Part shown: one piece after another, positions 1 through 1,610 of the stretch
Position numbering within the stretch: position 1 is the first letter of the stretch
Layout of the letters: each line of letters opens with the position of its first letter
Assembly: GCF_003334405.1 (NCBI RefSeq)
Contig: NZ_QOWM01000042.1
Direction: 5' to 3' (one strand)
DNA length: 1,610 nt
Source: Escherichia coli
GTDB taxonomy: Bacteria > Pseudomonadota > Gammaproteobacteria > Enterobacterales > Enterobacteriaceae
Translations under genes and position numbers: made by a program
The notes under the pieces: generated by a model
Told to the model about the DNA's origin: nothing
The model's database searches: none
The model's input: the letters and a program-made list of their open reading frames with translations, nothing else

Positions 1-1610
1 ACGCTGGCGCGGCTGTGGGGGGCGCTGCCGCCGGATATCCGGTTAAGCCCGCATCTTTACCTGGCGACCAACAGCGCACAGGGGCCGTGGTGGATACTGG
101 GGTGGTCTGAGCGGGTGCCGGGTGCTGAGGACGTACTGCCAGCGCCGCTGCCGCCGTACCGGGTGCTTACCGGGATGGCGGACCGCTTCGGGCGGACGCT
201 GACGTACCGGCGTGAGGCCGCCGGTGACCTGGCCGGGGAAATCACCGGCGTGACGGACGGTGCCGGGCGGGAGTTCCGTCTGGTGCTGACCACGCAGGCG
301 CAGCGTGCGGAAGAGGCCCGCACCTCTTCGCTATCTTCTTCTGACAGTTCCCGCCCTCTCTCAGCCTCAGCGTTCCCCGACACACTGCCCGGTACCGAAT
401 ACGGCCCCGACAGGGGTATCCGCCTTTCGGCGGTGTGGCTGATGCACGACCCGGCATACCCGGAGAGCCTGCCCGCTGCGCCACTGGTGCGGTACACGTA
501 TACGGAAGCCGGTGAACTGCTGGCGGTATATGACCGCAGCAATACGCAGGTGCGCGCTTTCACGTATGACGCGCAGCACCCGGGCCGGATGGTGGCGCAC
601 CGTTACGCGGGAAGGCCGGAGATGCGCTACCGCTACGACGATACGGGGCGGGTGGTGGAGCAACTGAACCCGGCAGGGTTAAGCTACCGCTATCTTTATG
701 AGCAGGACCGCATCACCGTCACCGACAGCCTGAACCGGCGTGAGGTGCTGCATACAGAAGGCGGGGCCGGGCTGAAACGGGTGGTGAAAAAAGAACTGGC
801 GGACGGCAGCGTCACGCGCAGCGGGTATGACGCGGCAGGAAGGCTCACGGCGCAGACGGACGCGGCGGGACGGAGGACAGAGTACGGTCTGAATGTGGTG
901 TCCGGCGATATCACGGACATCACCACACCGGACGGGCGGGAGACGAAATTTTACTATAACGACGGGAACCAGCTGACGGCGGTGGTGTCCCCGGACGGGC
1001 TGGAGAGCCGCCGGGAATATGATGAACCGGGCAGGCTGGTATCGGAGACATCGCGCAGCGGGGAGACAGTACGCTACCGCTACGATGACGCGCACAGTGA
1101 GTTACCGGCGACGACAACGGATGCGACGGGCAGCACCCGGCAGATGACGTGGAGCCGCTACGGGCAGTTGCTGGCGTTCACTGACTGCTCGGGCTACCAG
1201 ACCCGCTATGAATACGACCGCTTCGGCCAGATGACGGCGGTTCACCGCGAGGAAGGTATCAGCCTTTACCGCCACTATGACAACCGTGGCCGGTTAACCT
1301 CGGTGAAAGACGCACAGGGCCGTGAAACGCGGTATGAATACAACGCCGCAGGCGACCTGACTGCCGTTATCACCCCGGACGGCAACCGGAGCGAGACACA
1401 GTACGATGCGTGGGGAAAGGCGGTCAGCACCACGCAGGGCGGGCTGACGCGCAGTATGGAGTACGATGCTGCCGGACGTGTCATCAGCCTGACCAACGAG
1501 AACGGCAGCCACAGCGTCTTCAGTTACGATGCGCTGGACCGGCTGGTACAGCAGGGCGGCTTTGACGGGCGGACGCAACGTTATCATTATGACCTGACCG
1601 GAAAACTCAC
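1..1610 (+). CDS. rhs: Rhs-family YD-repeat protein, conserved core region (partial at both ends; internal fragment of a much longer ORF)
   Basis: Seen in sequence: frame 1 (position 1 = first base of a codon) is open through 1608 with no stop codon; I translated it codon by codon. Translation includes ...RYRYDDTGRVVEQLNPAGLSYRYLYEQDRITVTD..., ...TRSGYDAAGRLTAQTDAAGRRTEYG..., ...VRYRYDDAHSELPATTTDATGST..., ...TRYEYDRFGQMTAVHREEGISLYRHYDNRGRLTSVKDAQGRETRYEYNAAGDLTAVITPDGNRSETQYDAWGKAVS...MEYDAAGRVISLTNENGSHSVFSYDALDRLVQQGGFDGRTQRYHYDLTGKL. Established knowledge: this YD/RHS repeat signature defines Rhs/teneurin/TcC-type shell proteins, and the sequence matches my recollection of the E. coli-type Rhs core. 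Family-level symbol only; the paralog letter cannot be assigned from the core. True start and stop are outside the window. Confidence 0.93.
322..378 (+). other. Ser-rich low-complexity segment (TSSLSSSDSSRPLSASAFP) within the CDS; likely flexible linker preceding the YD-repeat region
   Basis: Seen in sequence: codons 322-378 translate to TSSLSSSDSSRPLSASAFP. The DNA here is a pyrimidine-rich tract (cacctcttcgctatcttcttctgacagttcccgccctctctcagcctcag) with T/A-ending serine codons (TCT, TCA), unlike the G/C-ending codons elsewhere. The linker function is inference. Confidence 0.5.
487..1608 (+). repeat. Array of ~17 degenerate YD (RHS) repeats, conserved at protein level, within the Rhs core CDS
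   Basis: Seen in sequence: consecutive units at approx 487-552, 553-624, 625-684, 685-780, 814-876, 877-942, 943-1005, 1006-1068, 1069-1137, 1138-1200, 1201-1263, 1264-1326, 1327-1395, 1396-1455, 1456-1515, 1516-1575, 1576-1608+. Each has an aromatic-rich start (RYxYD / YxYD / EYD) followed by G(R/D/Q)(L/V/M)(T/I/V). Unit boundaries are approximate. At nucleotide level the units are diverged, apart from short shared codon strings such as cgctaccgctacga. Possible additional RHS-like unit upstream at ~181-290 (FGRTLTYRREAAGDLAGEITGVTDGAGREFRL). Confidence 0.75.

Follow-up and report, generated by a model that had tools for sequence, protein, structure and literature searches.

Does the run of YD repeats encoded by a 1,610-nucleotide stretch of Escherichia coli DNA (RefSeq assembly GCF_003334405.1, contig NZ_QOWM01000042.1; the whole stretch is termed the window below) reflect selection on a protein fold or recent duplication, and do its irregular units mark structurally distinct positions? 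Very probably, the window codes for a section of the RhsD shell wall, a series of ordinary, conserved YD-repeat hairpins. Frame 1 is open over the entire 1,610 bases, and over its full length the DNA is 99.9% identical to the gene annotated as rhsD in numerous E. coli chromosomes. The translation shares 535 of 536 residues with RhsD of E. coli ATCC 8739, window residue 1 being RhsD residue 154, and is co-linear with the NCBIfam model NF041261 (RHS_core; model positions 154-693 of 1261, 1123 bits, the whole-protein cut-off of 2000 bits being out of reach for a 43% fragment). Judged by sequence, near-identity and co-linearity with RHS_core place the window in E. coli rhsD as follows:

1-1610, plus strand: internal rhsD coding fragment (Rhs core), frame 1, RhsD residues 154-689.

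YD repeats in the Rhs cores of E. coli have been described since the 1990s. The window is the same thing as the E. coli RhsA-D core proteins (NF041261), i.e., a G+C-rich core with tandem YD repeats, and the sole contrast is that it represents an internal fragment, with no PAAR/plug start and no C-terminal toxin. This description of the core is that of Hill and colleagues, as summarized in PMC2935791. The G+C content of the window (64.5%) is far higher than the E. coli average, and elevated G+C is a known signature of Rhs cores (PMC2935791).

The repeat is readily detected in the protein. Autocorrelation of residues 163-536 (BLOSUM62) peaks at lag 21 (z = 10.1), with harmonics at lags 42, 64, 86, 107, and 128 (z = 5.6-6.8), and the same analysis gave no periodicity in upstream residues 1-162. 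Pfam RHS_repeat (PF05593) has 12 matches in the window, eight of them with E < 1e-3, and TIGR01643 (YD_repeat_2x) scores 162 bits over seven stretches, against a cut-off of 15.8. Both the family profiles and the period of about 21 residues identify the array as YD/RHS repeats. Segmentation of positions 487-1608 gave 17 complete units, followed by part of an 18th, with lengths of 20-24 residues and exactly 21 residues in 11 of the 17 complete units:

487-1608, plus strand: uninterrupted run of YD units, supported by the segmentation, the lag-21 peak (z = 10.1), two modeled strands per unit, and a Foldseek match to the shell of Pseudomonas aeruginosa Tse5 (8cp6_B).
487, 550, 622, 685, 745, 814, 877, 943, 1006, 1069, 1138, 1201, 1264, 1327, 1390, 1450, 1513, and 1576, plus strand: first nucleotides of units 1 to 18.

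When a profile was made from the window's own units, it found 18 units within 487-1608 and 12 in the rest of full-length RhsD, whereas shuffled copies yielded about one each. The same profile places 11 additional units of full-length RhsD downstream of the window, and the array therefore continues beyond it. An earlier note, made from the letters alone, had recognized an Rhs/YD-repeat array of about 17 units of 20-23 residues and expected internal periodicity in the frame-1 translation. The RHS_repeat, YD_repeat_2x, and RHS_core matches support the first of these assignments, the unit count and lengths were essentially right, and the periodicity is highly significant.

A structural model of the 536-residue window protein was predicted with AlphaFold2 from 19 aligned sequences. 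The predicted local distance difference test score (pLDDT) averages 81 and is mostly 88-96 from residue 141 to approximately residue 530. The model is a plain beta-meander of 37 strands between residues 141 and 527, two per unit, irregular units included. In its strand list, the canonical unit consists of a strand, a five-residue turn, a second strand, and a second five-residue turn. Foldseek aligned the model to the Tse5 shell with E = 2e-37, a TM score of 0.76, and a root mean square deviation of 3.4 Å, and every one of the leading matches was an Rhs, Tc-toxin, or teneurin shell. The predicted fold of the window is that of an Rhs shell (cocoon). Position 487, given earlier as the start of the array, is indeed where the run of units begins, but the modeled meander starts upstream of it (residues 68-97 and 141-149):

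178-291, plus strand: upstream YD-like strands (residues 60-97), start of the beta-meander, modeled as strands at residues 68-71, 81-85, and 91-97.
292-408, plus strand: helix (residues 99-112) and Ser-rich, low-confidence linker (residues 113-136) that interrupt the meander, with pLDDT < 50 at residues 114-123 and 131-135.
421-447, plus strand: long strand IRLSAVWLM (residues 141-149), where the sheet resumes, with pLDDT of about 90.

At the sequence level, the upstream strands have a weak RHS_repeat match (residues 56-90; E = 0.61) and a weak alignment to residues 146-182 of the Tse5 chain. The helix starts with TQAQRAEEAR..., and the region comprising helix and linker is hypervariable among enterobacterial Rhs cores; the Tse5 alignment skips it, passing from query residue 99 to 137 while Tse5 advances from 182 to 189. 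Directly after it, D137, G139, R141, and L147 are nearly invariant. The N-terminal plug domain DUF6531 (PF20148) is annotated on a 696-residue protein (P0001) that is 100% identical to the window. Only the tail of this domain lies inside the window, where it is modeled with low confidence.

The closest solved structure is that of Tse5 (8cp6), which is co-linear over query residues 137-533 (E = 1.7e-58). Like RhsD, Tse5 has the W-N...TDCSG form of unit 11, a Gly-rich turn in unit 5, and the DUF6531-plug architecture. Unlike RhsD, with which it shares approximately 32-36% identity, it is without the helix and Ser-rich linker of window residues 98-136, and its unit 5 strand (RRWTALV) is not Lys-rich. 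The toxin of Tse5 is a pore-former, whereas the toxin domain of RhsD, which lies outside the window, is unrelated. Pseudomonas protegens RhsA (7q97) is co-linear with query residues 153-533 (E = 1.5e-51) and also carries W-N...LDCSG in unit 11, but its unit 5 is three residues shorter and not basic, and its N terminus is of the prePAAR/TMD type. More distantly, the BC subunits of Tc toxins (4igl and 4o9x) and the YD shells of teneurins (6fb3) form the same spiral shell of YD hairpins (Foldseek E = 1e-14 to 1e-21), and teneurins also matched the window by sequence. These shells share 12-16% identity with RhsD and have different plugs, and those of Tc toxins make four turns rather than three. 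Teneurins neither encapsulate nor cleave a toxin (bioRxiv 10.1101/2021.09.14.460138).

In the solved Rhs relatives, the YD hairpins spiral anticlockwise in three turns into a cocoon that an N-terminal plug and an aspartyl-protease plug at the C terminus close around the cleaved and largely unfolded toxin (PMC10684867; bioRxiv 10.1101/2021.09.14.460138). Tse5 contains 40 hairpins, in which DxxGR makes the turn and Tyr faces the cavity (PMC10684867), and P. protegens RhsA forms a three-turn cocoon of 76 antiparallel strands that holds the toxin and is closed by two plugs, one N-terminal and the other a C-terminal aspartyl protease (bioRxiv 10.1101/2021.09.14.460138). In RhsD, each YD unit of about 21 residues would likewise form one beta-hairpin, built from a strand, a five-residue DxxG[R] turn, a strand, and a five-residue DxxG turn, and by homology the aromatic residue of the "YD" would point into the cavity. 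Neighboring hairpins would hydrogen bond into a single continuous antiparallel sheet, and this sheet may spiral into a closed cocoon that surrounds the C-terminal toxin until delivery. The window would supply the opening stretch of the shell wall, approximately 40-45% of it, straight after the N-terminal plug. Encapsulation of the toxin, and its release via a secretion system, are presumed by analogy with Tse5, RhsA, and Tse15.

Departures from the consensus are common in the array. YD is absent from seven of the 18 units, which instead have YT, YE, TE, LN, YN, WS, and YN. In the model, the departures of these and other units are confined to turn length, and the most conspicuous units are the following:

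550-621, plus strand: unit 2, 24 residues, with a seven-residue first turn (DAQHPGR); strands at residues 183-189 and 197-202; length of 24 in 21 of 25 homologues.
685-744, plus strand: unit 4, 20 residues, with YE for YD and a tight two-residue turn (QD) replacing DxxGR; strands at residues 229-234 and 237-242; length of 20 in 23 of 25 homologues.
745-813, plus strand: unit 5, 23 residues, with TE for YD, a Gly-rich six-residue turn (GGAGLK), and RVVKKE as its basic second strand; strands at residues 247-253 and 260-265.
1069-1137, plus strand: unit 10, 23 residues, in which the first loop has 10 residues (YDDAHSELPA) and the second strand is shortened; strands at residues 356-360 and 371-373; length of 23 in 21 of 25 homologues.
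1138-1200, plus strand: unit 11, 21 residues, with W-S for Y-D and a canonical hairpin; strands at residues 379-384 and 390-394, five-residue turns, and invariant D395-C396-S397-G398.

The model strand list also gives unit 7 a six-residue first turn and unit 15 a two-residue second turn, and pLDDT drops to 77 in the turn of unit 5. Across the 25 aligned homologues, conservation is specific to each unit, both in its length and in the residues at its YD site, and the dipeptide position of unit 4 is never predominantly YD. The noncanonical units are conserved local adaptations, mainly with altered turn lengths, and not products of decay.

Two of these regions had been singled out from the sequence. 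The first, 1138-1200, translates exactly as quoted in the earlier note and lacks YD, but it was named as the single example of a loss that is shared by more than a third of the units. In the model it is geometrically canonical, and its W-S pair is exactly the kind of substitution reported as tolerated in Tse5, where Tyr is often replaced by Trp, His, Phe, or Arg and Asp by Asn or Ser, with hydrogen bonding undisturbed (PMC10684867). The second, 685-780, had been taken for one longer unit with a Lys-rich insert. This range translates to YRYLYEQDRITVTDSLNRREVLHTEGGAGLKR and is really unit 4 (20 residues) followed by the first half of unit 5 (23 residues); the peptide quoted for the insert, GLKRVVKKELADGS, is at 769-810, mostly beyond that range. 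Nor is it an insert, as it consists of the turn and second strand of unit 5, which has 23 residues in 23 of the 25 homologues and a GL[KR]R[VLI]V[KR] motif conserved to 38% identity.

The proposal that irregular units correspond to structurally distinct positions in the shell finds support at units 3-5. Chain B of 8cp6 comprises 1,121 residues, P48 to L1168 of Tse5, and chain numbers equal native numbers minus 47. The shell residues named as threading or anchoring the N-terminal fragment of Tse5 at the N-terminal aperture are Gln326, Glu328, Arg334, Gly361, Gly362, Gln363, and Trp355 (PMC10684867). With the 47-residue offset, six of the seven named residues checked have the expected type, and they map to RhsD units 3, 4, and 5. 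Gly361-Gly362-Gln363 align with A256-G257-L258 of the window, at the start of the stretch previously called Lys-rich. Because the anchoring residues of Tse5 fall in units 3-5, this region of RhsD probably lines the aperture beside the plug, and its Gly-rich turn and basic strand would be among the elements touching the N-terminal segment that threads into the cavity. Searches for Cys501, Trp489, Gly361, and Gln363 in the Tse5 paper, supplements included, returned nothing beyond the main-text passage. For unit 11, a canonical hairpin, the proposal of a structurally distinct position did not hold.

Purifying selection on the array is indicated by comparison with an E. coli Rhs core that is 76.8% identical (L002). 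Over 374 codons of the repeat region, synonymous divergence (dS) is 0.87 and nonsynonymous divergence (dN) is 0.18, giving a dN/dS of 0.21. When RhsD was compared with co-linear homologues of 37-47% identity, 13-14 of its 17 units scored highest against the unit bearing the same number, with mean scores of 45-52 for same-numbered units versus 14-16 for other units. In the search of representative proteins, giant multirepeat proteins outranked co-linear homologues by summed scores, and about seven proteins of Rhs size were usable; P0030 and P0242, which were misaligned in units 7-11, were left out of the structure alignment. These comparisons indicate that the array is older than the lineages compared and that every unit evolves as an individual element. 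The duplications that built the array very probably predate by far the divergence of the enterobacterial proteins from those of Pseudomonas, and each unit has since evolved singly and position-specifically under purifying selection, which is why units now resemble one another in the structural motif alone, with nothing left at synonymous sites.

The periodicity could alternatively be upheld not by selection on each unit but by concerted evolution, i.e., ongoing duplication, unequal crossing-over, or gene conversion, and unit-scale rearrangement apparently does occur in relatives (duplications of 42 and 18 residues and one deletion between 9-nucleotide direct repeats). The DNA of the window argues strongly against this. 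Tandem Repeats Finder (minimum score of 30) reported nothing, there is no exact tandem duplication, and direct repeats are limited to scraps of 12-32 nucleotides, some of them in register with the units. In-register unit pairs have a mean identity of 25.6% in amino acids and 40.0% in nucleotides, compared with 7.1% and 28.9% in random register. The 63-nucleotide periodicity of the DNA is significant against a shuffle of codon order (z = 5.2) but is gone when synonymous codons are permuted with the protein fixed (z = -0.4). Where two units share a residue, codon identity is 0.417, versus a null of 0.415 ± 0.019 (z = 0.13), third-position identity is 0.355 versus 0.350 (z = 0.48), and the most similar pair of units, at 62% DNA identity, is inside the null. 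The DNA similarity between units is fully accounted for by the protein. Since codon identity is at chance, synonymous sites between units are fully randomized and retain no sign of either gene conversion or recent duplication. Units that are individually orthologous across genera are likewise at odds with concerted evolution, which the synonymous-permutation test refutes for this window and which we regard as very improbable. Both the claim that the periodicity exists at the protein level only and the claim that diverged units reflect purifying selection rather than recent duplication are thus sustained. Even less credible, with a probability close to nil, is that the repeat is a compositional artefact of a G+C-rich open frame with abundant Gly, Arg, Asp, and Tyr, in spite of the base composition and the long spurious antisense reading frames that might suggest it. 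Among 1,000 composition-preserving shuffles, the highest z was 4.79, less than half of the observed lag-21 value; curated profiles (RHS_repeat and YD_repeat_2x) match, solved homologues are co-linear, and Foldseek recovers the fold. Together, the shuffles, profiles, and fold match refute this explanation.

A more serious alternative concerns the irregular units alone, which may be frozen accidents: early neutral departures that a robust hairpin tolerated and that were conserved along with the whole shell, with no role specific to their position. The Arg position of Tse5, like its Tyr and Asp positions, is frequently replaced with the hydrogen-bond pattern unaffected (PMC10684867), unit 11 is canonical in the model, and the number of units without YD makes departure from the consensus the norm. 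In addition, the Rhs protein of Salmonella bongori has neither Trp nor Cys at the equivalent of unit 11. Set against this are the turn-length changes of units 2, 4, 5, and 10, which are kept in 21-23 of the 25 homologues, the named contacts that the Tse5 equivalents of units 3-5 make with the N-terminal fragment, and the invariance of C396 and S397 in all 19 sequences, the most distant of them at 33% identity, amid neighboring nonmotif positions that mostly vary. On this balance, frozen accidents are a possible but rather unlikely explanation, and conserved local adaptation of the individual hairpins is preferred.

Several observations nevertheless weigh against the interpretation of the window as a conserved RhsD shell wall, or against its details. 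Some copies of rhsD are disrupted, e.g., by IS1 in ATCC 8739. Against Tse5 and P. protegens RhsA, just nine and seven of the 17 units, respectively, score best with their same-numbered counterparts; unit-by-unit orthology fades over this range of sequence divergence, with a signal that is weaker yet persistent. The residue mapping between Tse5 and RhsD is good but not perfect, as the published "Trp355" is a Tyr in the deposited Tse5 chain, in which the nearest Trp is at 366. We know of no structure of RhsD. The model covers the 536-residue fragment, with 19 sequences, and was read for secondary structure rather than coordinates; inside/outside orientation and contacts were therefore taken from homologues at 33-36% identity.

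Nowhere else in the alignment of 19 sequences are four residues in a row invariant, as they are in the D-C-S-G of unit 11 (residues 395-398; nucleotides 1183-1194). DCSG is also present in Tse5 and P. protegens RhsA, while S. bongori Rhs has D-G-E-G. The Cys-Ser pair might, beyond mere tolerance, mark a functional site specific to the clade of PAAR/DUF6531-type Rhs proteins and could help to hold or process the encapsulated N- or C-terminal segments, but we consider this improbable. A term search of the main text and supplements of the Tse5 paper (PMC10684867) found no mention of a unit 11 DCSG.

The YD-repeat array and the folding of irregular units as hairpins are already known for Rhs proteins, and several solved structures of Rhs, Tc, and teneurin proteins show the hairpin spiral and its tolerance of non-YD residues. 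The significance of the present analysis outside correct annotation is small. It provides a revised map of the units across RhsD residues 316-689 and two small leads, namely, the probable aperture position of the Gly-rich turn in unit 5 and the invariance of the unit 11 DCSG. In addition, it shows quantitatively that the array leaves no trace in the DNA beyond what the protein dictates, so that arrays of this kind will always escape DNA repeat finders.

Related copies occur in 3,661 of 5,426 complete genomes, with a median of three per genome. In the best-matching genomes, rhsD lies between ybbP and ybbC, and in ATCC 8739 it is downstream of ybbP; the window itself comes without flanks. The ATCC 8739 rhsD gene (L001), which is 99.8% identical, encodes DPMG at RhsD residues 1232 and 1254, the second within PLQQIDPMGL at 1249. 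In this near-identical full-length gene, the DPMG pair is, by its sequence, the aspartyl-protease motif DPxGx18DPxG that ends the core, outside the window. The 3' end of the same gene, including the toxin end, is cut by IS1A, and farther on there are an orphan fragment annotated as "RHS repeat-associated core domain" and small downstream open reading frames (these features were noted at L001 positions 9675-10372 and 11031-11717).

Within the window, long antisense open reading frames are present at 57-563 (minus strand, 168 residues) and 679-1095 (minus strand, 138 residues), a consequence of its high G+C content. An Rfam search of both strands of the window identified no RNA family.

Apparent unit-scale rearrangements were seen in several related proteins (P0024, P0040, P0060-P0067, and P0011). 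Tandem, in-frame, exact duplications are found in some E. coli Rhs entries, of 42 residues (two units) in P0024 and P0040 and of 18 residues in six O157 entries. P0011 is without 29 residues between two copies of CAGATGACG, which are 9-nucleotide direct repeats, and both copies are present in the window, at 1141-1149 and 1228-1236. These duplications and the deletion are either real rearrangements or assembly artefacts. Finally, Rhs repeats 97-100% identical to approximately 70% of the window are present in three partial E. coli proteins whose annotation is VgrG (PF05954; P0049, P0051, and P0069). The same core may therefore also occur in VgrG-Rhs fusions, or the two may have been joined in assembly.

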